A stretch of DNA of 64,000 nt from contig CALSPS010000006.1 in assembly GCA_943788295.1 (NCBI GenBank), positions 26,192 through 90,191 on the forward strand, written 5' to 3'. The translations under genes were made by a program, and so were the position numbers. Shown in pieces: positions 6,494-36,991 of this stretch; within the stretch, counting starts at the first letter, position 1; the number at the start of each line of letters is the position of its first letter. The notes below the pieces were generated by a model that was given only the letters and a program-made list of their open reading frames with translations, had not been told where the DNA came from and made no database searches. The DNA comes from Candidatus Poseidoniaceae archaeon. GTDB taxonomy: Archaea > Thermoplasmatota > Poseidoniia > Poseidoniales > Poseidoniaceae.

Positions 6494-6724
6494 GTGGCTC
6501 TGCGGGTCAACTGGGACCGCACTCCCGTTTCTGTGCATCACGAAAGCAAAGCATTGCTTGAGTTGTTGATTCTCCACCTCAAGAACAAACACGGATTGCG
6601 CAAGCGATCCATTGTTATGGAGGACCGAGAAGAGGGTCCTGGTTTCCTCTTTTTCTTGTATCAAGCGTGTGACCCACGCTGGATTTCTGAATTCGATATC
6701 GCTCAAGTTCCCGAGGAGGAATGA
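6494..6724 (+). CDS. Hypothetical 76-aa protein. Its stop overlaps the start of the downstream methyltransferase gene (ATGA).
   Basis: ORF starts 15 nt after the rps17e stop. Its TGA overlaps the ATG at 6721, suggesting translational coupling. No recognisable motif. Confidence 0.3.
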   Translation: MALRVNWDRTPVSVHHESKALLELLILHLKNKHGLRKRSIVMEDREEGPGFLFFLYQACDPRWISEFDIAQVPEEE

Positions 6725-7566
6725 AGCCAATGGGTGACAGGAGCACACTTCCGTTACCTCAATCCACTTACAGCCTGGAAATTGTGTTGATTGGAGTGTC
6801 CCACCCAGGGAATCTGGGTGCTGTTTGTCGGAGCATGTTGAATTATGGATTTACCAACCTGAGGCTGGTGAATCCCCGATGTGAACCGGATAACATCGAA
6901 GCGAGGAACCGAGCCAAGCATGCAGGTCGTGTCCTTGACCACTGCACCACATACGATTCCCTCGACGCAGCAACCGAAGATGCATCGATCATTATTGGCA
7001 CATCAGGCAAGCGAGAAATTGGTTCAAAAACTAATTTTAGGCACTTCGTCTATCCGTGGGAACTTTCAGAACGCTTGGAAAATTTCACCGGCAAAGTTTG
7101 TCTCGTCTTTGGCGAAGAAGGAAAAGGCATGTCCACGGAAGACTTAGCGAAATGCGACTACCTCGTCACACTCCCTACATGGGAAGGCTATCCAATTGCC
7201 AACCTCTCTCATGCAGTGAATGCCTGTGTCTATGAGTTGCATCGGAACCGGGTGATTGCCAGACAGGGCAAGGAAGAAGGCTTACCCGATGTGGTACCGC
7301 TTGAGCGATCGCTCAATCCGGAGTTGAAACAGATTCTTCATCAAACGGTGCGGGAATTAGCCAACGCCCTACCCGGCAACAATGAGCGTCGCCAAAGCTT
7401 TGGACAATCCCTGACCCGTTCCATCATGCGTTCAATGCCGACTCAGGGAGAGGCGACGAGGATGATTGGAGGTCTTCTTGATGCGACAACTGCAATCCAA
7501 TACGTCGAAGGGAACGAAGCGTGGCGCAGCCAACGAAGGCGCAAGATCAGTCCTGAGGAAGAATGA
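6721..7566 (+). CDS. SpoU/TrmH-family (SPOUT) RNA 2'-O-methyltransferase, TrmJ-like
   Basis: 281-aa translation has the SPOUT signature (EIVLIGVSHPGNLGAVCRSMLNYGFTNLRLVNP ... IIIGTSGK ... LVFGEEGKG). Confidence 0.7.
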   Translation: MKPMGDRSTLPLPQSTYSLEIVLIGVSHPGNLGAVCRSMLNYGFTNLRLVNPRCEPDNIEARNRAKHAGRVLDHCTTYDSLDAATEDASIIIGTSGKREIGSKTNFRHFVYPWELSERLENFTGKVCLVFGEEGKGMSTEDLAKCDYLVTLPTWEGYPIANLSHAVNACVYELHRNRVIARQGKEEGLPDVVPLERSLNPELKQILHQTVRELANALPGNNERRQSFGQSLTRSIMRSMPTQGEATRMIGGLLDATTAIQYVEGNEAWRSQRRRKISPEEE

Positions 7567-7572
7567 ATCTTC

Positions 7573-8022
7573 TCAAGCGTGCCAAGAAGCGACGCTTTTG
7601 GGTGTTTCTCGAACATGCATGGCCACCAAACGAAGCCTGTTCCCATAGGCAGATTTGATGTGTGGCTCAACTTGCTCGAAAGCCCACTTTGCAAGATTTT
7701 CTGCTGTTGGGACAAATGGGACCACTACAGTCCTGTGGTCTGAGTCCATCATTTTGAGGGCGGAACGTGCTTGCTCATCATGCTCGTAGACCACGAAGGC
7801 GTGATCGACCACATCATGGACGTAAAGGGTAAGAATCTCACTCACATCTGAAAAATCCATCAACATTCCCTCGTCCGAAACGCCGGGATCTTGAACAACA
7901 TCTCCCTCGATTTCTGCCTCAAATCGGTAGCGGTGACCGTGCATGTGCCGACATTTGCTCTTGTGGTTTGGCACACGATGGCCAGTATCAGTCTCAATGT
8001 ATCTTCGTATTCGTGTGGTCAT
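7573..8022 (-). CDS. queD: 6-carboxy-5,6,7,8-tetrahydropterin synthase (QueD / PTPS family)
   Basis: 149-aa translation has the PTPS CxxxHGH-type motif (CRHMHGHRYRFE) and a conserved C-terminus. Its stop overlaps the queC start. Confidence 0.8.
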   Translation of the reverse strand: MTTRIRRYIETDTGHRVPNHKSKCRHMHGHRYRFEAEIEGDVVQDPGVSDEGMLMDFSDVSEILTLYVHDVVDHAFVVYEHDEQARSALKMMDSDHRTVVVPFVPTAENLAKWAFEQVEPHIKSAYGNRLRLVAMHVRETPKSVASWHA

Positions 8023-9173
8023 TGTTCCAACTCCTCAAATTCCAACGAGGCTGAATTGATGCAATATCTCATTCCGCCGTGTTCTCTTGGTCCGTCGTTG
8101 AAAATGTGACCAAGATGTGCGTCGCATTTCGAACATCGAACCTCTGTTCGAATCATGCCATGCGCACGGTCTTCTATTTGATCAATGGACGCCCTTGCAT
8201 GCTCGCTGTGGAAGGATGGCCATCCACAACCGGAATCGAATTTCATGGCAGATGTGAAGAGGTGATGGCCGCAACAGATACAACTGTAATTCCCTGGTCT
8301 TTTCTCATCCCAATACGTACCTGTGAACGCACGCTCAGTCCCACTTTCTCGCGTGACATGATATTGCAGTTGCGTTAATTTCTCTTTGTAATATGCGTCT
8401 TTGTGTTTCCGTTCTGTTTCCAAGGCTGCAGCGAGGACGGTATCCCACGGTTCAGTGTATTCTATTGGGTCGACCAAGTCAAGTGCGTTGAAAGCTAGAA
8501 TTCGTTCCACATCAGAGCCACTACGCCCTGAACTTCTCCCTTCTTGATCAGGGTTGTACGACGTGATGGTGTTTTCAAACACACGGTCAAAATTCAAGCC
8601 AGTCTTGTCGCATGAAGCCAAGGCGTCTTTCAAAATGGTTACCTTGTCTCCGTCAATGTATGGTAGATGGAACGAAACTGTGTGACTGTCCCAGTTCCCC
8701 ACTGCAAAAGCATGCTCTAGGGCTTGGTAAAATTCTGGTCGGCAATCGGGATAGATCGCATGATCTCCTGAGTGCACCCCCAAGGCAATTTCGACATTGG
8801 TCTTTTCTCGTTTGCCCACTGACAGGGCGTATCCGTAGAGGATTGATGCGAAAATGGCGTTCCTATTTGGAACGACCGTTGATTTCATCTGATCTTCTTC
8901 ATAATGGCCTTCGGGAACCACGCTGCCTTTGTTTATCAGAGAAGATTCAAACAAGTTCATCGCTGAAGTCAAATCCACAATGTGATGCTCGATACTGTGT
9001 CCTTTGTCTAGCAAGTATGCAATGTTGTTTGATGCTCTTGTCAACTCAACGCTGTGTTTTTGACCGTAATTATAGGAGATGCAACTGACCTTTTTTCCTG
9101 CCGCTAGGGCGTTCAGGAGCAGTGAAGTAGAATCCATTCCCCCAGAGAGAGCCATGACTGTACGCCCGGACAT
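8019..9173 (-). CDS. queC: 7-cyano-7-deazaguanine synthase QueC fused to a C-terminal methionine-R-sulfoxide reductase MsrB (SelR) domain
   Basis: Residues 1-~230 carry the QueC PP-loop (ALSGGMDSTSLL, YNYGQKH, VVPNRNAIFASI, SGDHAIYPDCRPEF). Residues ~262-384 are a canonical MsrB domain (CxxC...CxxC zinc site, GCGWPSF, HLGHIFNDGP, RYCINS). Confidence 0.8.
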   Translation of the reverse strand: MSGRTVMALSGGMDSTSLLLNALAAGKKVSCISYNYGQKHSVELTRASNNIAYLLDKGHSIEHHIVDLTSAMNLFESSLINKGSVVPEGHYEEDQMKSTVVPNRNAIFASILYGYALSVGKREKTNVEIALGVHSGDHAIYPDCRPEFYQALEHAFAVGNWDSHTVSFHLPYIDGDKVTILKDALASCDKTGLNFDRVFENTITSYNPDQEGRSSGRSGSDVERILAFNALDLVDPIEYTEPWDTVLAAALETERKHKDAYYKEKLTQLQYHVTRESGTERAFTGTYWDEKRPGNYSCICCGHHLFTSAMKFDSGCGWPSFHSEHARASIDQIEDRAHGMIRTEVRCSKCDAHLGHIFNDGPREHGGMRYCINSASLEFEELEQ

Positions 9174-9838
9174 TAATCAACACCCATCCATTTGTGAGTT
9201 TGAAGGCTCAGGCGCCATTGTGGATTCTGTTTGACAATTGCTTCTGTCTCAGCGAAATTTTTTCCATTCCACTCCACAGATTCTAACTCCATGTAGCAAG
9301 GTTGGAGGAAGGTGTGTTTGAACCCTTGTCGCAATTCATCGTACATCGAAAGATCTTGACCTATGAACACGCACTTCAATTCATCTCCCGTACGTTGGCG
9401 TAATTTCACATCTGGATACATTTGATCCTTAGGTGACACACAAATCCAATCCAAGAGCCCTTCAGGGACCTCTATGGTTCCGTTCGTTTCGACCGATAAG
9501 GTGTAGCCTCTTGCCTTGAGCAAACGATGCAAGGGCCAAAGATCTTGCATCATTGGTTCTCCACCGGTGAAGATGATTCGCTTACAATCAAAGGTTGATA
9601 TTTCTCCAAGCAAGTCAATCGCATTCATAGTTTTGAATGTTAGGAAATCTGTATCGCACCATTCGCAACGTAAGTTACAGTTTCCAAAACGAACAAAAAC
9701 ATGAGGAATACCAGCATGGTAGCCTTCCCCTTGAACTGAATGGAACACTTCGACGATTGGATATTCTGAAGCCAAATCAGTCGGATTGTCAACAGGCGAG
9801 TCACCAGCACGAACACAGGATTCGTCAACACTCATCAT
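9173..9838 (-). CDS. queE: 7-carboxy-7-deazaguanine synthase QueE (radical SAM)
   Basis: 221-aa translation: YPIVEVFHSVQGEGYHAGIPHVFVRFGNCNLRCEWCDTDF (CxxxCxxC cluster motif and the QueE N-terminus). Stop and start overlap queC. Confidence 0.85.
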   Translation of the reverse strand: MMSVDESCVRAGDSPVDNPTDLASEYPIVEVFHSVQGEGYHAGIPHVFVRFGNCNLRCEWCDTDFLTFKTMNAIDLLGEISTFDCKRIIFTGGEPMMQDLWPLHRLLKARGYTLSVETNGTIEVPEGLLDWICVSPKDQMYPDVKLRQRTGDELKCVFIGQDLSMYDELRQGFKHTFLQPCYMELESVEWNGKNFAETEAIVKQNPQWRLSLQTHKWMGVD

Positions 9839-9844
9839 CTCACC

Positions 9845-10414
9845 TCAAAGGGGCCGTGAATGAATCAATTGCATGAGTTCTTGCCGTGCTTCTGGTCGTT
9901 CGAAAAACACCCCACGCATAGCCGATGTGGTCATGATTGAATTTTGCTTCTTGACACCTCTGCATCGCATGCATCCATGCGTTGCTTCAATGATGACTGC
10001 TGCTCCCAATGGCGCTAAATTGGCTTCTAAATCATCTGCAATGCCCTTGGTGATGCGTTCCTGATTTTGCAAGCGACGAGCATGGAGATCGATAATTCGT
10101 GCAAGCTTACTGATGCCCACAATCCGTTCGACAGGAATGTATGCAACGTGAGCGCGTCCATTAAACGGTTGTAAGTGGTGTTCACATGTGGAATGAAATT
10201 CAATATCCCTCAACAGGACAATACCATCGTACCCTTCTCCATTGAAGGTGGAATCAAGAAGTTCAGCGGCATCCATTTGGTAGCCACCAAAAATTTCGTC
10301 CCAAGAATCAATCACACGCTTCGGTGTCTTTGCTAAGCCCTCTCGGTTTGGGTCTGGTTCAAGGTACCCAAGGAGGGTATGCACTGCATCTTCTGCTTCT
10401 TCTCGCGTTACCAT
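9845..10414 (-). CDS. folE: GTP cyclohydrolase I (FolE, type I)
   Basis: ORF 9845..10528. The conserved FolE N-terminus (EEAEDAVHTLLGYLEPDPNREGLAKTPKRV) starts at the internal ATG at 10414; an alternative ATG lies at 10453. Catalytic-core motifs (HSTCEHHLQPF, EATHGCMRCRGV) are present. Confidence 0.8.
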   Translation of the reverse strand: MVTREEAEDAVHTLLGYLEPDPNREGLAKTPKRVIDSWDEIFGGYQMDAAELLDSTFNGEGYDGIVLLRDIEFHSTCEHHLQPFNGRAHVAYIPVERIVGISKLARIIDLHARRLQNQERITKGIADDLEANLAPLGAAVIIEATHGCMRCRGVKKQNSIMTTSAMRGVFFERPEARQELMQLIHSRPL

Positions 10415-10729
10415 TTCAATCGCCTCCGCGCCCGTGTCGTGCGTCAATTTCATCCAATTGGTCAAGCAATTTTCTGCAGGCTGTTCGGACTGCATCAGCC
10501 AGACTGACAAATTTATGCTCGTCCCCAACGTGTTTGCGGAGATCCTCTACGAGCTCCGCCGGCATGTCAAGGGAAATTTTGGGCATGTTTCGGCCACCTT
10601 CCTATGGCATATAAGTATTCGTAGAGTAATACCTTGCGAATACACCGACTTCCATTATTGACCTCCATTTCCATGATTTTTCATTCAATGCTAAGCCAAT
10701 GTTCAAGGCATTCCGTAACCGACGATGTT

Positions 10730-12241
10730 ATGATGACAGTCATGCTATCACCGCATCAGGCCCTCGAACACCTCCATGCTCTGCGTTCAAAGACTGGAAC
10801 GATGGACACGGTTGGGCTTCCTGACGAAGTCATTGACCGCTTTTGCACACTTGATCCAAAACTCGTCAAAGCCATTCATGAAGCAAGCATTCGATTTCAA
10901 GAAATTGAATCTGAATTTGGCTCGGATATGTTACAACATGATGAAGCGAACCTTGTGAAGGTCCTTCAGCACGATTTCGTTAATTTCTATGCACCAGCAA
11001 CCGTCAATCCATACATTGCGCTTTCCGGGCGAGGTCCATGGATCGTTACCGCCTACGGTGCAGTTCTTCACGACAATGGAGGCTATGGCATGCTTGGCGC
11101 AGGTCACGGGCCCGAGGAAGTCATTCAAGCAATGTCGGGGAACTGGGTAATGGCCAATGTCATGACGCCTTCCTTTAGTCAAAAGCGACTCGCCGAGCGA
11201 CTGGAGCGAGAACTTGGTCACACCCGTGGCTCTTGCCCATTCACGCGCTTCATTTGCATGAACAGTGGTTCTGAGTCGGTTACAGTGAGCCTCAGAATCG
11301 CCGATGTGAACGCTAGAAAACACACTGGCCCTGGTGGTCGGCATGAAGGAAAAGAAATCAAATTGCTTGCGATTGAGAAAGCCTTCCATGGCCGTACAGA
11401 CCGCCCAGCACAGATTTCTCACTCCTGCAAAGGCTCCTATGACAAGAATTTGGCAACATTCCGGGACAGGGATAACCTCCTGCTCGTCCCGGCAAATGAC
11501 ATCGCCTCTCTTGAAGCGATGTTCAAGCGCGCAGAAGAAGAAGATTGGTTCATTGAATTAATGGCCATTGAACCAGTACAGGGAGAAGGGAACCCTGGTG
11601 CTTGCGTTCAGCGTGATTTCTACGACGCTGCTCGAAGGCTCACCTTGGAGCACGGCTCAATGCTTCTGGTCGATTCGATTCAGGCTGGAATTAGGGGCCA
11701 AGGCTGCCTATCCATCATTGATTATGATGGATTTCAAGACGCCGAAGTGCCTGATTTGGAAACATGGTCAAAGGCATTGAACGCCGGCCAATATCCTCTT
11801 TCTGTGCTCGGCATGAACGATCGAGCTGCAGAGAACTACGTGGTTGGAATTTATGGGAACACGATGACGACGAACCCACGAGCTTTGGAAACGGCATGCG
11901 CAGTCCTTGACAGCATGACGCCAGAACTTCGTTCCAACATCAAAGACCGGGGTGATGAATTTGTCGATAAGTTGAAAATATTACGAGAAGAATTCCCCGG
12001 TATCATCACCAAAGTACAGGGCACTGGGCTTTTGCTCAGCGCTGAATTGGAACCCACTCGTTTCCCGGTTGTAGGGTTTGACGCCGTTGAGCCATGGTGC
12101 CGCCGACAAGGACTCGGTGTCATTCATGGTGGCGTGAACGCACTGCGATTTACACCACACTTCGGCATCACTTCAGAAGAAATTGATTTGATCATCGAAG
12201 TGGTTCGCGCCTCACTGATCGAATTCAACCAGCGCTCATGA
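10730..12241 (+). CDS. PLP-dependent class-III aminotransferase with an unusually long N-terminal extension
   Basis: ORF 10634..12241; the probable start is ATG 10730 (MMTVM...). The class-III fold is recognisable from about residue 110 (GPWIVTAYGAVLHDNGGYGMLGAGHGPEEV ... FICMNSGSESV ... EPVQGEGN ... LLVDSIQAG). The PLP lysine context is not unambiguous by eye. Confidence 0.65.
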   Translation: MMTVMLSPHQALEHLHALRSKTGTMDTVGLPDEVIDRFCTLDPKLVKAIHEASIRFQEIESEFGSDMLQHDEANLVKVLQHDFVNFYAPATVNPYIALSGRGPWIVTAYGAVLHDNGGYGMLGAGHGPEEVIQAMSGNWVMANVMTPSFSQKRLAERLERELGHTRGSCPFTRFICMNSGSESVTVSLRIADVNARKHTGPGGRHEGKEIKLLAIEKAFHGRTDRPAQISHSCKGSYDKNLATFRDRDNLLLVPANDIASLEAMFKRAEEEDWFIELMAIEPVQGEGNPGACVQRDFYDAARRLTLEHGSMLLVDSIQAGIRGQGCLSIIDYDGFQDAEVPDLETWSKALNAGQYPLSVLGMNDRAAENYVVGIYGNTMTTNPRALETACAVLDSMTPELRSNIKDRGDEFVDKLKILREEFPGIITKVQGTGLLLSAELEPTRFPVVGFDAVEPWCRRQGLGVIHGGVNALRFTPHFGITSEEIDLIIEVVRASLIEFNQRS

Positions 12242-21449: not shown

Positions 21450-21525
21450 GGGCTCGTGGTCTAGGGGTTATGACGTCGCCTTGACATGGCGAAGATCGAG
21501 AGTTCAATTCTCTCCGAGCCCACCA
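21450..21525 (+). tRNA. tRNA-Val (anticodon GAC), with the 3' CCA encoded in the genome
   Basis: Manual cloverleaf: 7-bp acceptor GGGCUCG/CGAGCCC; D-arm; anticodon stem UCGCC/GGCGA with loop UUGACAU; T-arm GAGAG/CUCUC with loop UUCAAUU; discriminator A followed by CCA. No intron. Confidence 0.85.
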
Positions 21526-21984: not shown

Positions 21985-23886
21985 TCACTCCACGAACATG
22001 TCTTCCTGGTAGCCCGTGATGATGTCGCCGGTTTCGTCTTCTTCGATGGTCACCGTTTCATCTTCGTCATCAAACTCGATAATGGTGCCAAAGACTTCCT
22101 CATCCTCAAGCGTTAGGCCAATGTGAGAGCCTATGTCGATCTCTCCTTCCCCTTCAGCGTCCTCGTCTTCCACGGATTCTTCGTCGGACTCATCATCCAA
22201 TTCTTCTTCCTCGAAATCCTCTTCGAGGGCTTCTTCCATCTCATCTTCGATGTTATCTTCTTCTTCCGATTCTGATTCAGTCGAAGCATCTGCTTGGTCG
22301 TCTTGGACTTCCTTCATTGCCTTCGCACGTCCACGCCAAGTCGGCATGAGGACCAGATGCATGTAGAGGGAACCAACAAGCCCCGCTGCTCCAAGAATCA
22401 TGAACAGTATTCCGTCCCAATAGAAGCCTGCAGGCATCGAACTGGATTTGCCACCCAGAGGCGTTAATGAGTTCTTACAATCCCCTTCCTGAATCGCAGG
22501 GTCACAGGGATATGAATCGCCTTCAGCAAGACCTGCTGGTGGGAGTAAGTTGCCCTTGGTCTCCAATTCAATTGGACCACCAGTTCCATCAACAATCACG
22601 CCGAATCCATTGACAACCCATAGGGCGATGAACAGTCCAAACGCTAGATGAATCAATGGCCATACATATTCGTTCCATTGCTTACCCATCATGCGCTTTT
22701 GCATCTCTGTTGGGAATGGCTTTGATGGTTTGCTGATGACGGCCCGATCATCTGTGGCTTCATCGGCATCAGCCAAATTTTCTAGGGCGGTGATAAATTC
22801 AATCATGTCCACGGTTCGATCGTTGTCCTCATCGACTTCGCTCAAGAATTCTTCGATTTGCTCGTGCCCGATTTCCTCATCAAACAACTTGTTCAATTCG
22901 TTCATTAATTCAACAACATCCACTCTGCCATTGGCATCTCGGTCAATGCTCCTGAAGAATTGAGCCGGGGAAGTTTCCATTTCATCCATGGCGTCAGCAA
23001 TCTTGCGAATGAGAGAGATCTCTTCGGAGCTTTCGACTTCCTCGGAGTGTGTTTCTTCAGTTTCTTCTTCGTCCATCGATTCTTCGATGCCATCATCTTC
23101 GACTTCCGACGTGTCCTCTTCAGCAACTTCTTCTTCACTCGATTCAGGATCGTCAGATTCAACATCTTCTTCAGAATCTTCGGTTGCCTCTTCTTCAAGT
23201 TCTGAATCTGATTCAACATCTTCTTCAGAATCTTCGGTTGCCTCTTCTTCAAGGTCTGAATCTGATTCAACATTTTCGTCAGTTGCTTCCTCTTCTTCCA
23301 CGGTTTCGGTTTCCACTTCATCTTCAGATTCAGTTTCTTGTTCTTCTTCGGTTCCCGCCACATTCACTTCTTCAGGTTCCTCCATAGCGGTGGTTGAGGT
23401 ATCGTTCAGTTCGTCTTCTGGCAAATCATCTCCAGTGATGGTTTTGTGCAACTCAGCAAGATCGATCCTTCCATCTCCGTCAGCATCTATTGTTTCGATA
23501 AGACGCTCAACTTGTGAAGGCGGCAAGTCTGCCAGATTGAGACTTAACAATCCAGACTTCAACTCACTTGAGTCGATTTGGCCATCGCCGTCCTTGTCGA
23601 ATTTGTTGAAGAGGATCGGAATCGTGATGCCTGTTGTTGCTAACCAATTTCGCAGTACGTCGACCACATCATCGGCAATGAAAACTGTACCGCAGTGGGT
23701 GCATTTGGTCGAATCTAACGGCACGAGGCCACCGCAAGCACCACACTCGCCGAGGGCTTCATCAGAGACTCCGGAAAAGGAAATATTGCATTCTGGACAC
23801 TTGGTTGAATCAAGGGGAATTACTGCTCTGCAAGCACCACATTCTCCTGTGGCAACTTCTTCAGTCTTGTCTTCGGACATAGGCAC
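21985..23886 (-). CDS. Double-zinc-ribbon, four-EF-hand, highly acidic membrane protein
   Basis: 633 aa. Two tandem CxxC...CxxC ribbons at the N-terminus. Four EF-hand loops (DKDGDGQIDSSE, DADGDGRIDLAE, DRDANGRVDVVE, DEDNDRTVDMIE). An acidic tandem-repeat block. Two hydrophobic helices (WPLIHLAFGLFIALWVV and ILFMILGAAGLVGSLYMHLVL). A poly-acidic C-terminal tail. Confidence 0.6.
   Translation of the reverse strand: MPMSEDKTEEVATGECGACRAVIPLDSTKCPECNISFSGVSDEALGECGACGGLVPLDSTKCTHCGTVFIADDVVDVLRNWLATTGITIPILFNKFDKDGDGQIDSSELKSGLLSLNLADLPPSQVERLIETIDADGDGRIDLAELHKTITGDDLPEDELNDTSTTAMEEPEEVNVAGTEEEQETESEDEVETETVEEEEATDENVESDSDLEEEATEDSEEDVESDSELEEEATEDSEEDVESDDPESSEEEVAEEDTSEVEDDGIEESMDEEETEETHSEEVESSEEISLIRKIADAMDEMETSPAQFFRSIDRDANGRVDVVELMNELNKLFDEEIGHEQIEEFLSEVDEDNDRTVDMIEFITALENLADADEATDDRAVISKPSKPFPTEMQKRMMGKQWNEYVWPLIHLAFGLFIALWVVNGFGVIVDGTGGPIELETKGNLLPPAGLAEGDSYPCDPAIQEGDCKNSLTPLGGKSSSMPAGFYWDGILFMILGAAGLVGSLYMHLVLMPTWRGRAKAMKEVQDDQADASTESESEEEDNIEDEMEEALEEDFEEEELDDESDEESVEDEDAEGEGEIDIGSHIGLTLEDEEVFGTIIEFDDEDETVTIEEDETGDIITGYQEDMFVE
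23161..23274. repeat. Perfect-to-near-perfect 57-nt direct tandem duplication (2 copies) inside the acidic region of the EF-hand protein gene
   Basis: aacatcttcttcagaatcttcggttgcctcttcttcaag(t/g)tctgaatctgattc occurs twice back to back. It encodes the repeated peptide ESDSxLEEEATEDSEEDV. Confidence 0.6.
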
Positions 23887-24843: not shown

Positions 24844-26394
24844 TCATCGTGGGATACGGCCGTTCTCCGCTTCGATCCGTGCTAACCAGGCCCCATCTGA
24901 CAATGCGGTAGCGATGTTGATGAGTTCTTGACTTGTGCTGCGGTCACCGCTGAGTGGCTTTGCTAGTGTGCGAACGCGTTGCTTCAAGCTTGCAACATAA
25001 GTGGACGGTTCAAGTGATTCAAACTCCAATGCCTCGCACGCAACCAACAGTTCGCACGCTAAAACTTCCGACAAACGTTGCGTGGCTTGAAGCAGATTCC
25101 ATGCAGCGGTGGCGCCCATGCTCACATGGTCCTCTTGTCCAGCAGAAGTGCTGGTGGAAAAGGCAGCTCGTGGACTTGCGTGACCATGGAGTTCTGCCAA
25201 AGATGCTCCGGCAACATACTGAACAATCATCAAACCGGATTCCAAGCCAGAGTTTCTGGCCAGGAAAGCTGGCAATTCACTTCGTGCTGGATCCAGCATT
25301 TGGTCAATCCTACGTTCAGAAATAGATCCGAGCTCAAACAAGGCTGCAGACATAGAATCTGCTGTTAAGGCAATCACCTCTCCATGGAAATTCCCCTGGG
25401 AAATGACTTCATGTGGGCCTGGGTTCTTCGGGTCTGGAAAAATAAGTGGGTTATCTGTTGCACTGTTCAATTCGATCGTGAGCGTTTCAAGCATGGCAGT
25501 GTATTTTTGTAAAACTGCACCATGAACCTGGGGGGCGCATCGGAATGAATACGCATCTTGTACTCGTTCACAATCTGCGTGTGAGTCAAGAATCTCGGAT
25601 TTGACCATCAAGCTTCGAATCCTTTTGGCAACGAGACTCTGACCCGGATGGGGTCGCGCATCATGTACACGCGGATCTGAAGGTTGGATGCTTGCCTTTC
25701 TGGCTTCCATTGAGGTGCAAAGGATCAAATCGGCCAGTGGTAGAAGCGATGACAATCTTCGTTCGGCAAGGGTCATGAAGGCCAACATTTGACTGGTGCC
25801 GTTGATCAAAGATAATCCGTCCTTTGCACCCAATTTTATCCCGATAAGACCGTGTTCCCTAAGCACGGCTTCTGTTGGCGCAGGTGCTCCATTTTGGTCC
25901 AAAACATAGCCTTCTCCGAGCAATGCTAAGGCCATGTGAGAGAGTGGTGCTAAGTCCCCACTTGCACCAAGGCTTCCAATTCTCGGCACGTAAGGAATGA
26001 TATCTTTATTGAGAAATTCCAGAAGTTGATCTAAGACATTTGGGTGGACGCCTGAGTGGCCTTTAACGAGCGAATTAATTCGGACAGCCATCATTGCACG
26101 GACAGCGTTTTTGGGCATTGCCTCTCCAAGTCCAGTAGCGTGTGAACGGACCAAATTGGTTTGCAACTGAGCCAAATCATCGGGAGAAATTCGTTCATGG
26201 ACCAAGGCGCCGAACCCAGTATTAATTCCATACACCGTTTCACCGCGGGAAAGAATTCCATCCACAACAGAACGAGCAGCGTGGACCTTTTGCCAAGCAT
26301 CTTCTGAAATAGCTACATCTGCATGATTCGAAGCGATGCGTTCAACTTCAGCCGGAGTTAATGTGGTGCCATCAAAATGGATTGTGTTTCTCAT
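24844..26394 (-). CDS. hutH: Histidine ammonia-lyase (HutH)
   Basis: 516 aa with the MIO-forming ASG triad context (GSLGASGDLAPLSH) and the HAL family N-terminus. Confidence 0.9.
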   Translation of the reverse strand: MRNTIHFDGTTLTPAEVERIASNHADVAISEDAWQKVHAARSVVDGILSRGETVYGINTGFGALVHERISPDDLAQLQTNLVRSHATGLGEAMPKNAVRAMMAVRINSLVKGHSGVHPNVLDQLLEFLNKDIIPYVPRIGSLGASGDLAPLSHMALALLGEGYVLDQNGAPAPTEAVLREHGLIGIKLGAKDGLSLINGTSQMLAFMTLAERRLSSLLPLADLILCTSMEARKASIQPSDPRVHDARPHPGQSLVAKRIRSLMVKSEILDSHADCERVQDAYSFRCAPQVHGAVLQKYTAMLETLTIELNSATDNPLIFPDPKNPGPHEVISQGNFHGEVIALTADSMSAALFELGSISERRIDQMLDPARSELPAFLARNSGLESGLMIVQYVAGASLAELHGHASPRAAFSTSTSAGQEDHVSMGATAAWNLLQATQRLSEVLACELLVACEALEFESLEPSTYVASLKQRVRTLAKPLSGDRSTSQELINIATALSDGAWLARIEAENGRIPR

Positions 26395-28448
26395 GGATCA
26401 TCACCGTCTGGAAAAAGAGAATCGAGAAAGACAGAATCGGTCGAATGAGGGAGTGTGATTGTAAGCCGCTTTTCGGCCTCCATTGCCCTTTTGATGGCGA
26501 ATTTTGCACCGTTATTACGTGCCCAGGCTCTTCTCGCAACGCCATTGTTGACATCCCAATGGAGCATGGATTGGAGTTTCTTCTCACATTCATCGCTCCC
26601 ATCGAGCAACATGCCAAACCCACCGTTCATCACTTGACCCCATCCGACGCCCCCACCATTGTGAAGGCTGACCCATGTTGCGCCTCGAAACGCATCGCCA
26701 ACAAAATTCTGAACGGCCATGTCTGCGGTCCACATGGATCCGTCCCGAATGTTAGCGGTTTCCCGATACGGGCTGTCGGTTCCCGACACATCGTGGTGGT
26801 CACGACCCAAAACAATGGGCCCGGATAGTTCTCCGTTACGAATGGCTTGATTCATCGCAGAAGCAATTTTTCTGCGACCTTCATCGTCTGCATAGAGAAT
26901 GCGAGCTTGGGAACCAACCACCATTTGATTTTGACCGGCTTCCTTAATCCACCGAATGTTGTCTTTCATTTGTTGGGTAATTTCTGGCGGCGAAGTATCC
27001 ATCATTGATTCGAGAACTTCCATTGCAATTTGATCCGTCTTCTTCAGATCGTTTGAATCCCCAGAACAGCATACCCATCGGTATGGACCAAACCCATAGT
27101 CGAAACACATGGGGCCCATGATATCTTCAACATAACTGGGGTACCTAAAACTCCCATCGCCGTTGATTACGTCTGCGCCTGCTCTACCCGCTTCGAGCAA
27201 GAAGGCGTTTCCATAATCCCAGAAATACATGCCCGCTTCCGACATGACATTGATTGCAGCAGCGTGGCGTACGAGGGTTTCACGAACTTTCGTTTTGAAC
27301 AGTTCTGGATCGTTTGAGAGCATTTCTGCGGCCTCTGAATATGGCATTCCTACTGGGAAATAACCACCTTGGAATGGGTTGTGAAGGCTTGTTTGATCAG
27401 AACCAAGATCGACGCGGACTTTCCGTTCTACCAACCGCTCCCAAAGTTCGACAATGTTACCAACATACCCGATGGATATTGCTTGGCGGTTGGCGGCGCA
27501 TTCGACCATTCGATCAATGGCAACATCGATGTCCTCGGTCACCTCAGATAACCAACCTTGCTGGTGACGCTTGTATGCTGCGTGTTGGTTGGATTCAGCC
27601 ACAATGCATGACGCGCCTGCGATGACGGCTGCTTTTGCTTGTGCCCCAGACATACCTCCAAGGCCAGAGGTGACGAAGGTGACGCCCTCCAGCCCCGAAT
27701 CGCCGGATATGCCCAAATGCGCTCTTGCAGCGTTAAGGAGCGTTATGGTTGTGCCATGGACGATGCCTTGGGGCCCGATGTACATGTAAGAGCCTGCTGT
27801 CATCTGCCCGTATTGTGTGACGCCCAGTGCGTTGAGGCGTTCGTAATTATCTGGTGTCGATTCACTTGGAATCATCATCCCATTGGTGACAACCACCCGA
27901 GGTGCGTTGACATTGGAGGGAAAAAGACCCATTGGATGGCCAGAATACATGACGAGCGTTTGTTCATCGCTCATGACTGAAAGGTATTGCATGGTCAACC
28001 TGTACTGAGCCCAGTTTTGAAACACGGAACCGTTCCCACCATAGGTGATGAGTTCATGTGGAAATTGTGCAACAGCAGGATCCAAATTATTCTGAATCAT
28101 GAGCATGATTGACGCGGCATGGATTGATTTTGCAGGGTATGCGTCGATTGGATGGGCTTTCATATCGTATTCTGTGGGGCGAAACCTCCACATAATGATG
28201 CGTCCGAAGGTGTTCAATTCCTCTGCAAACTCGGGGCCTAGAATTGCATGATGTTTTTCATCAAAATAACGCAAGGCGTTTTCCAAGGCCAATTTCTTTT
28301 CTTTTTGGGTAAGGACTTGGCGTCTTTTTGGCGCCCTATCGACGTTCGAATCAATGCCAGGGTGCGCAGGAAGTGTGTCGGGGATACCCTCTCCTATATG
28401 CGCCCTCAACCCGCGAACATCCGTGCCCATGTTTGCTTGAAACCGCAC
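26391..28448 (-). CDS. hutU: Urocanate hydratase (HutU), long form
   Basis: 685 aa; typical urocanase motifs (MTAGSYMYIGPQGIVHGTT, NAD-binding GLGGMSGAQ). Overlaps the hutH start by 4 nt. Confidence 0.9.
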   Translation of the reverse strand: MRFQANMGTDVRGLRAHIGEGIPDTLPAHPGIDSNVDRAPKRRQVLTQKEKKLALENALRYFDEKHHAILGPEFAEELNTFGRIIMWRFRPTEYDMKAHPIDAYPAKSIHAASIMLMIQNNLDPAVAQFPHELITYGGNGSVFQNWAQYRLTMQYLSVMSDEQTLVMYSGHPMGLFPSNVNAPRVVVTNGMMIPSESTPDNYERLNALGVTQYGQMTAGSYMYIGPQGIVHGTTITLLNAARAHLGISGDSGLEGVTFVTSGLGGMSGAQAKAAVIAGASCIVAESNQHAAYKRHQQGWLSEVTEDIDVAIDRMVECAANRQAISIGYVGNIVELWERLVERKVRVDLGSDQTSLHNPFQGGYFPVGMPYSEAAEMLSNDPELFKTKVRETLVRHAAAINVMSEAGMYFWDYGNAFLLEAGRAGADVINGDGSFRYPSYVEDIMGPMCFDYGFGPYRWVCCSGDSNDLKKTDQIAMEVLESMMDTSPPEITQQMKDNIRWIKEAGQNQMVVGSQARILYADDEGRRKIASAMNQAIRNGELSGPIVLGRDHHDVSGTDSPYRETANIRDGSMWTADMAVQNFVGDAFRGATWVSLHNGGGVGWGQVMNGGFGMLLDGSDECEKKLQSMLHWDVNNGVARRAWARNNGAKFAIKRAMEAEKRLTITLPHSTDSVFLDSLFPDGDDP

Positions 28449-35264: not shown

Positions 35265-35318
35265 TTTCATCCCAATTTACAGTGAACATTGAAGGTCCGA
35301 GTAGGCCGAACAACGGTC

Positions 35319-36365
35319 ATGCACCCCCTCGTCGAATGCGTACCTAATATCTCAGAAGGCAGAGATGTTGAGAAAATCCAACGAATCGTTGATGCAGCAT
35401 CCACATTCGATGGGTGCTCAGTGTTGGGAGTGGAACCTGATGCTGATTACAACCGAACTGTCATCACCATAGCTGGAACTCCAGAGTCAGTTACATCGGC
35501 TGCGTTCGCACTAGTCTCTACGGCCATTGCAGAAATTGACATGCAGAAGCATAGCGGGGAACACCCACGGTTAGGTGCCGTCGATGTGTGCCCATTTGTC
35601 CCATTGAAGGACATTACAATGGAGGAATGCGCTGAACTTGCAAGATCGCTTGCCCAAAGGGTGGCGAAAGATCTGAACATTCCAACCTTCTTGTATGGGG
35701 CAGCAGCCACCCATTCGGCTAAGTCACTCTTGTCGACCATTCGGAAGGGGGAATATGAGGGGCTGGAAGCACGCCTTTCAGATGGAGACTCTCCTCATGA
35801 TGAGCACACACGGTACCCAGATTTTGGTCCACTCGAGTGGTCCGAACGCGTAGCGCGGTCCGGTGGTTTGACGTTTGGCGCTAGGGAGATACTCGTTGCC
35901 TACAATGTCAATTTGAGTGAGTCGGGCGCTAAAGTCGCCCGATTGGTTGGATCATTAGTGCGTTCATCCGGCCGTTTAATCAAACAAGACGATGGGCGAA
36001 AAATGAGGTTTCCGGGTTCCTTGCCAATGGTCCAAGGCATGGGTGTTCCACTCGAAACCCACGGCATTAGCCAAGTTTCGATGAACCTCAGGGATGTCAA
36101 CCAATGTCCAATGCATGTGGCCTTTGAAGCCTGTAAATCAATTGCAGGTGACCACGGCGTTGATGTTCCGGGAAGCGAGGTTGTTGGCCTCGTTCCACTT
36201 TCCGCCATTTTAACAGCGGGCCACTGGTATGCAAAAGAAGGGGAAACAGAAGAATCTGCACTGGTTGATGCAGCCATTCGTGGCCTCGGATTAAACAATT
36301 TAAATTCATTCGATCCGAAAGAACGGATTATTGAATATGCACTCGAAGAAGGTGGTATTCAATGA
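35319..36365 (+). CDS. ftcD: Glutamate formimidoyltransferase (FtcD formiminotransferase domain)
   Basis: ORF 35289 (TTG)..36365; ATG 35319 gives MHPLVECVPNISEGRD, the canonical formiminotransferase N-terminus. HPRLGAVDVCPFVP is also conserved. Confidence 0.8.
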   Translation: MHPLVECVPNISEGRDVEKIQRIVDAASTFDGCSVLGVEPDADYNRTVITIAGTPESVTSAAFALVSTAIAEIDMQKHSGEHPRLGAVDVCPFVPLKDITMEECAELARSLAQRVAKDLNIPTFLYGAAATHSAKSLLSTIRKGEYEGLEARLSDGDSPHDEHTRYPDFGPLEWSERVARSGGLTFGAREILVAYNVNLSESGAKVARLVGSLVRSSGRLIKQDDGRKMRFPGSLPMVQGMGVPLETHGISQVSMNLRDVNQCPMHVAFEACKSIAGDHGVDVPGSEVVGLVPLSAILTAGHWYAKEGETEESALVDAAIRGLGLNNLNSFDPKERIIEYALEEGGIQ

Positions 36366-36991
36366 ATTGGATGGATCTAACTTTGAGTGAATTTCAGGCG
36401 CATCTGGCATCGGATGATGCAACACCAGGAGGGGGTACCGCAGCAGCAATTGCATTGGGCCAAGCCGCGGCACTCACTGAAATGGTAGCTGGCCTTACAT
36501 TGGGCAAAGAAAAATGGCAATCAGGATGGACTGCGGCTGAAACCGCAAGGAAGGTAGCCGTACGGATTATGGTGCGTTCCGGTGAACTCGCCAACGAAGA
36601 CAGTGAGGCCTTCGACTCGGTGGTGGCTGGATTTAAAATGCCAAAATCCACTGAGGAGGAGAAGGATGCTCGTCGCCAGTCCATTCGGCTTGCGACTCTA
36701 CGTGCTGCCGAGGTTCCATTGTCAACCTCGCAACATGGAATGGAATTACTGAATGTCCTTTCCGATTTAGCCACTGATGGCAATGCAAATGCTGCGTCAG
36801 ATGTAGGTGTAGCCTCTCTTCTTGCCAGTGCTGCTGTCAAAGGGGCTCTGTTCAACGTAGACATCAACGTAGCATCATTACCAGATGAGATGGCTCAGCA
36901 AGTCATCGACCAATGCTCAGGGATGCGTGAAGAATGCAGCAGAGTCTCTCGCCTTGTGATGCATGCCGTGCATGACAGGATTAATTCTTGA
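36362..36991 (+). CDS. Formimidoyl-tetrahydrofolate cyclodeaminase (FtcD C-terminal domain homologue, stand-alone)
   Basis: 209 aa, all-helical and Ala-rich (PGGGTAAAIALGQAAALTEMVAGLT...), typical of the cyclodeaminase domain. Its start overlaps the formiminotransferase stop. Confidence 0.65.
   Translation: MNWMDLTLSEFQAHLASDDATPGGGTAAAIALGQAAALTEMVAGLTLGKEKWQSGWTAAETARKVAVRIMVRSGELANEDSEAFDSVVAGFKMPKSTEEEKDARRQSIRLATLRAAEVPLSTSQHGMELLNVLSDLATDGNANAASDVGVASLLASAAVKGALFNVDINVASLPDEMAQQVIDQCSGMREECSRVSRLVMHAVHDRINS

Follow-up and report, generated by a model that had tools for sequence, protein, structure and literature searches.

The preQ0 (7-cyano-7-deazaguanine) synthase QueC is recognized by the motifs SGGxDS, YxQxHxxE, VPxRN and YPDC and by an essential tyrosine next to the first cysteine of its zinc site; zinc is cited as required for QueC function and the zinc motif counts as a defining feature of the family (PMC13329287). 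Gat-QueC (archaeosine synthase) offers a precedent for QueC in a multi-domain fusion, and the MsrA-MsrB and PilB proteins (3E0M, 5FA9, 7E43) offer one for the methionine sulfoxide reductase MsrB. Here we analysed a 64,000-nucleotide stretch, called the window below, of a Candidatus Poseidoniaceae archaeon (GenBank assembly GCA_943788295.1, contig CALSPS010000006.1, positions 26,192 to 90,191 of the forward strand). This Poseidoniales (Marine Group II) genome carries on the minus strand of the window a four-gene operon, folE-queE-queC::msrB-queD, whose third gene encodes a QueC without its zinc cysteines, joined to a complete MsrB. We regard this protein as the probable product of a fusion between neighbouring genes, bifunctional and with two independent activities.

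The domain composition proposed by the initial annotation was confirmed. Within one 384-residue open reading frame (ORF), Pfam recognized QueC (PF06508) over residues 5-230 (E 2.5e-41, score 141.9 against a cut-off of 22) and SelR/MsrB (PF01641) over residues 266-380 (E 2.1e-50, 170 bits), and the same scan found at the N-terminus no class-II glutamine amidotransferase domain of the kind carried by Gat-QueC. The NCBIfam MsrB model TIGR00357 scored 176.7 bits, above its cut-off of 113. An AlphaFold2 model of the fusion protein (mean pLDDT 86, pTM 0.79) was matched by Foldseek to B. subtilis QueC 3bl5 with a target-normalised TM of 0.81 and to MsrB 3cez with a target-normalised TM of 0.89 and 52% identity. 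That two genes were joined artificially during assembly or sequencing, a risk raised together with the fusion itself, deserves hardly any credence: nothing speaks for it beyond the unfused arrangements of other lineages, whereas the same continuous frame recurs in independent assemblies (JGI, ENA, NCBI, Logan, Tara), where over 120 protein clusters share it at 66-95% identity, and in 28 species-representative genomes. Neither a stop nor a frameshift was present at the domain junction (about 8388-8420), whose residues are conserved among 43 orthologues. The best relatives of the fusion protein carry the names Candidatus Poseidoniaceae or Thalassarchaeaceae.

The QueC part indeed lacks the zinc-binding cysteines, as had been claimed. 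Residues 204-221 read TSYNPDQEGRSSGRSGSD; the canonical C(x)8CxxCxxC motif is absent from the QueC part, which has three cysteines only (31, 144 and 188) and none within this loop. Ligand columns were set by aligning the protein with 150 sequences that represent clusters at 50% identity; compared to cysteine-containing relatives, the zinc-ligand columns of P0124 (TCYNPDKEGRSCGKCGSCQER) are occupied here by S205 (codon TCG), S215 (TCA), S218 (AGT) and D221 (GAT), and pairing with B. subtilis QueC (3BL5) places TSYN opposite TCYN. Across the 43 orthologues (66-95% identity), T204, S205, Y206, P208, D209, G212, R213, G216, G219, D221, E223 and R224 are invariant and S214, S215 and S218 almost invariant; this strong conservation indicates that the loop is not decaying. 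The other QueC motifs are kept (SGGMDS, YGQKHSVE, VPNRN, YPDC and Y206, the essential tyrosine beside the first ligand position). The NCBIfam QueC equivalog model TIGR00364 scored 139.4 bits, under its cut-off of 150.3; L070, which belongs to this clade and has the cysteines, likewise falls under the cut-off, so that the low score probably reflects divergence of the whole clade. A PP-loop paralogue other than QueC had also been envisaged initially; a defence-type QueC-like protein (QatC, Cap9) was rejected given the canonical motifs, the neighbours folE, queE and queD and a weak PADLOC PP-loop match (43.9 bits). Two explanations of the cysteine loss were discarded as well. A fixed four-ligand hard-metal site built from the Ser and Asp residues is unlikely because ligand position 2 is too variable, being S, H, D, N, A, E, P or I across relatives. 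Zinc sparing is hardly convincing for an operon in which FolE (CEHH, HGCMRCRG), QueD (CRHMHGH) and MsrB all keep their zinc ligands.

Related genomes were surveyed for the fusion and for the cysteine loss, with one genome per species; 47 Poseidoniales-type operons were returned, of which 44 could be scored. Three states were found. queC and msrB are fused in 28 operons. They are separate and adjacent in nine (L019, L038, L040, L042, L046, L047, L054, L061, L066), where msrB has its own GGAGG-like ribosome-binding site and, in most cases, an ATGA/TGA-type overlap with queC. The remaining seven (L033, L035, L036, L037, L039, L043, L045) are devoid of msrB, with queC directly followed by queD and no msrB within 6 kb. 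Counting fused and adjacent genes together, 37 of the 44 operons thus have msrB between queC and queD. The QueC loop is cysteine-free in all Poseidoniales, in all three states. Fusion proteins span 362-405 residues, the linker length varying with the fusion type. In the adjacent state of L038, queC ends with ...FKEANT and a stop codon, and msrB then starts with MNETNN...LTDLQYQIT; the corresponding junction of the window protein reads ...HKDAYYKEKLTQLQYHVT. Comparison of the two shows that the stop/start boundary was simply lost. The QueC and MsrB parts were each placed in a neighbour-joining tree, without bootstrap support; both trees gave the same groups of lineages, with the three states mixed among them, a pattern that fits vertical inheritance of msrB inside the operon, with repeated fusion, splitting or loss. 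A complete Poseidoniales-type folE-queE-queC::msrB-queD operon with its SpoU neighbour was also seen on a contig labelled 'Phycisphaerae bacterium MED703' (L025, NZFX01000056.1, 1-9255), which is probably a mis-binned archaeal contig.

The initial annotation had suggested that the MsrB zinc ribbon is a structural replacement for the lost QueC zinc subdomain. Both features do reside in one polypeptide and the zinc cysteines of MsrB are invariant, but the distribution of the cysteine-free loop contradicts this proposal and makes it very improbable. The loop occurs at the nine loci with a separate msrB, and with no msrB at all in the seven Poseidoniales operons mentioned above, at no fewer than 14 Planctomycetota loci and on 75 viral contigs. 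The latter were found among the 80 best IMG/VR relatives: 64 have the pattern S/D/S/S and 11 the pattern S/x/[ST]/D. No MsrB fusion was seen among the 80. The standalone QueC proteins found in marine Pirellulaceae and elsewhere among Planctomycetota are cysteine-free, with 53-60% identity and the loop S-H-T-D, and the surroundings of the one such locus examined are those of an ordinary bacterial chromosome. The nearest non-fused metagenomic relatives, P0122 and P0123, share 59% identity with the window protein and have the identical S/S/S/D loop. In a loop-masked tree, the fusion clade is nested within a mostly cysteine-free group. The occurrence of cysteine-free QueC without MsrB, or beside a separate msrB, implies that the cysteines were lost earlier and more widely than the two genes were fused, and independently of their fusion. 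P0122, P0123 and others lie on virus-like contigs with DpdA, FolE, QueD, QueE, DNA polymerase or ligase genes and inteins. Among the relatives P0123, P0124, P0139, P0145 and P0132, several are interrupted by inteins (Intein_splicing, LAGLIDADG) and one has an N-terminal HNH endonuclease, which are hallmarks of mobile elements within the QueC clade. Viral sequences, bearing inteins and homing endonucleases, dominate this clade, which suggests that zinc-free QueC may have spread via viruses, Poseidoniales and Planctomycetes having acquired it by transfer.

Cysteine loss is tracked by a C-terminal extension of QueC that forms a helix, and not by MsrB. Beyond the ER..AF motif, a tail that is 28 or more residues long and includes a W..V..A helix is present in all 53 unfused S..D-type QueCs and in 72 of the 73 SD.S-type cysteine-free QueCs, compared to 25% of 102 cysteine-containing QueCs; those with the tail include the cysteine-containing proteins nearest the cysteine-free clade. 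In the AlphaFold2 model of the window protein, the helix occupies residues 243-265 (pLDDT ~87-93) and leads into MsrB with essentially zero linker. This near-absence of a linker may explain the fairly high pTM. The clade-specific helix probably stabilises the former zinc region.

Support for the activity of a zinc-free QueC comes from the Flavobacterium phage vB_FspM_immuto, which encodes a cysteine-free QueC (43.6% identity to the window QueC) beside DpdA3, FolE, QueD, QueE and QueF, and in whose DNA all guanines are replaced by fdPreQ1, made via preQ0 (PMC10516641). This is good though indirect evidence that QueCs of the sister S/D/S/S type are active. The opposite reading, that a QueC without the cysteines falls short of full preQ0 synthesis, either ending at the amide ADG or using a different substrate, and gives a different 7-deazaguanine, would agree with the cited zinc requirement and with the low TIGR00364 score, and a variant proposed to stop at ADG has been described in QueC* of Campylobacter phages. 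However, QueC* of Campylobacter phage CP220 (L169, 1492-2151) keeps the four zinc cysteines and differs from QueC by YGSNH in place of YGQxH and FPDC in place of YPDC, two motifs that are intact in the window protein. Loss of the cysteines was therefore rejected as a signature of the ADG stop. Together with the preQ0-derived base of immuto and the similarly low score of the cysteine-containing L070, this leaves a partial synthase quite improbable. YGSNH and FPDC of CP220 QueC* are candidate determinants of the amide stop.

As stated initially, the MsrB domain is complete. C298/C301 and C347/C350 form the zinc CxxC pairs, C316 in GCGWPSF is the resolving cysteine and C371 in RYCINS the catalytic one; all of them, together with HLGH (H353, H356), are invariant both among the 43 orthologues and among 36 MsrBs, fused or free, from species-representative genomes. 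The model aligned to MsrB crystal structures with target-normalised TM values of 0.8-0.9 and 49-54% identity. We propose that the adjoining and translationally coupled queC and msrB of the Poseidoniales preQ0 operon probably became one polypeptide through loss of the boundary between them. The N-terminal domain would be an orthologue of the preQ0 synthase QueC from a zinc-independent subclade, with Ser/Ser/Ser/Asp for the four cysteines, and is predicted to convert 7-carboxy-7-deazaguanine, NH3 and 2 ATP into 7-cyano-7-deazaguanine, presumably for archaeosine in tRNA. The C-terminal domain would function as an ordinary zinc-containing two-Cys MsrB that reduces methionine-R-sulfoxide, presumably with thioredoxin. 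Fusion would ensure co-expression without creating new chemistry, the two activities remaining independent.

A functional link between the two domains has also to be considered: MsrB could repair oxidised methionines of QueC or QueE, or could let preQ0 synthesis respond to oxidative stress in sunlit surface water. The radical-SAM enzyme QueE is sensitive to oxygen, and M13 (PP-loop) and M96 (lid) of QueC are invariant in the 43 orthologues. The retention of msrB in the operon across most Poseidoniales could also be read in favour of such a link and may exceed historical accident, and the pTM of 0.79 for a protein of 260 + 120 residues hints at a fixed inter-domain arrangement, so that some structural coupling is possible. 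These last two points count against full independence of the domains, and our argument for activity has its own weakness, since the immuto evidence concerns the sister S/D/S/S type and not S/S/S/D, and the host QueC could contribute. Nevertheless, the seven lineages that dropped msrB from the operon show no visible change in QueC, the linker length differs among fusion types, and M13 and M96 are as conserved in the MsrB-less QueCs of Pirellulaceae and viruses. A methionine-repair link through the methionine of SGGMDS or M96 was rejected, both residues being common in MsrB-less relatives and not tracking MsrB; nor did any other feature of QueC follow the presence of MsrB. Literature searches returned no paper on a QueC-MsrB fusion, on a zinc-free QueC clade or linking the two enzymes, and nothing relevant on QueC with Poseidoniales or on Msr with Marine Group II. 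We consider the functional link unlikely. We hold a similarly low expectation for a composite scenario, in which a zinc-independent class of preQ0 synthases in viruses, Marine Group II and marine Planctomycetes, with a helix replacing the zinc knuckle, would be combined with a genuine redox coupling through msrB by repair or oxidative-stress gating. The fusion of neighbouring genes into a protein with independent activities remains our preferred explanation.

The coordinates of the fusion gene, its domains and its neighbours are collected in Table 1. queE lies upstream of queC in all Poseidoniales loci compared, the position of queD downstream of queC::msrB is conserved in relatives, and the SpoU-family gene adjoins queD in most Poseidoniales loci. 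folE orthologues align only from about residue 30-39. A class-III aminotransferase gene (10634-12241 in the window) flanks the operon in about ten Poseidoniales loci. The initial annotation had called this a preQ0/archaeosine operon. The first half of the name is borne out by folE, queE and queD; the archaeosine-specific arcTGT and ArcS were not found among the ~52 scanned of the 57 window ORFs of at least 80 residues, so that the operon is here termed a preQ0 operon and its link to archaeosine is an inference.

Table 1. Location in the window of queC::msrB, its parts and the adjacent genes.
Feature	Position	Strand	Description and support
queC::msrB fusion gene	8019..9173	minus	384 aa; ORF, Pfam QueC + SelR, >120 full-length orthologous clusters
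QueC catalytic (PP-loop ATPase) domain, residues 1-230	8484..9173	minus	PF06508, motifs, Foldseek match 3bl5
PP-loop SGGMDS, residues 10-15	9129..9146	minus	invariant in 43 orthologues
Former zinc-knuckle loop TSYNPDQEGRSSGRSGSDVER, residues 204-224	8502..8564	minus	alignment to Cys-containing relatives
QueC C-terminal extension, residues 231-262	8388..8483	minus	DPIEY..W..VL..AL helix, directly into MsrB
MsrB domain, residues 263-384	8022..8387	minus	PF01641, TIGR00357, Foldseek match 3cez
MsrB CxxC pairs	8271-8282 and 8124-8135	minus	
MsrB resolving Cys316	8226-8228	minus	
MsrB catalytic RYCINS	8052-8069	minus	
folE (GTP cyclohydrolase I, zinc-type)	9845..10528	minus	PF01227 E 1.3e-66; exact start codon uncertain
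queE (radical-SAM 7-carboxy-7-deazaguanine synthase)	9173..9838	minus	stop overlaps queC start (TAATG)
queD (6-carboxytetrahydropterin synthase)	7573..8022	minus	PF01242 E 5e-26; start overlaps queC::msrB stop (ATGA)
SpoU-family RNA 2'-O-methyltransferase	6721..7566	plus	PF00588; convergent to operon

The genes around the operon are archaeal housekeeping genes, encoding among others a proteasome-type AAA ATPase, primase and SRP54, together with ribosomal proteins S19e, L31e and L39e, which were recognized by reading the translations and not by family search. The only tRNA found in the window is tRNA-Val(GAC) at 21450-21525; it has A14-G15 at the would-be archaeosine position and a genomically encoded CCA end. 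Histidine utilisation genes (histidine ammonia-lyase, urocanase, glutamate formiminotransferase and cyclodeaminase) are located at 24844-28448 and 35289-36991, and the stretch in between encodes an MFS transporter as well as a molybdopterin oxidoreductase accompanied by FdhD. A 633-residue protein encoded at 21985-23886 has EF-hand calcium-binding motifs and a weak double-zinc-ribbon match, which is unusual for an archaeon.

The zinc-free QueC clade, undescribed in the literature found, and its consequence for annotation are in our view the part most worth attention. The definition of the QueC family has to be qualified by a large and strongly conserved clade that has all the other catalytic motifs and the pathway context but no zinc cysteines, and this combination suggests that zinc is probably structural, and replaceable, in QueC. 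Databases name the fusion protein 'MsrB' only (NCBI) or 'QueC' only (JGI), and the NCBI QueC equivalog model under-scores the zinc-free clade; automated reconstructions that go by NCBI's name would therefore overlook that Marine Group II archaea make preQ0. The locus is also a gene fusion caught in progress, with absent, adjacent and fused states coexisting in one order, and it calls for caution in reading mechanism into a domain fusion.

Compared to canonical QueC (E. coli P0AG67 and B. subtilis 3BL5, 'Cluster 1' of PF06508, PMC13329287), the window protein has the same PP-loop ATPase fold, the same SGGxDS, YxQxHxxE, VPxRN and YPDC motifs, the tyrosine after the first ligand position and the operon partners queD, queE and folE, but it has S, S, S and D for the four zinc-ligand cysteines, adds a C-terminal helix extension of ~30 residues and the MsrB fusion, and scores under the TIGR00364 equivalog cut-off. 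The immuto QueC belongs to the same clade and is likewise cysteine-free, with a C-terminal helix tail and with FolE, QueD and QueE beside it; it differs by its S/D/S/S ligand positions, a longer loop and the lack of MsrB, and it serves DNA modification (DpdA3, QueF, fdPreQ1), unlike the window QueC. From CP220 QueC* the window protein differs by having YGQKH and YPDC and by lacking the zinc cysteines. With the standalone MsrBs of E. coli (6SYM), B. pseudomallei (3CEZ) and human (MSRB3, 6QA0), the window MsrB shares the fold at 49-54% identity, the two CxxC zinc pairs, the catalytic RYCxN, the resolving cysteine in GCGWPSF and HLGHVF, but it is joined to the C-terminus of QueC. In the fusions known for each enzyme, MsrA and MsrB act on a common substrate class and Gat supplies ammonia to QueC, whereas QueC and MsrB have no known common substrate or cofactor.

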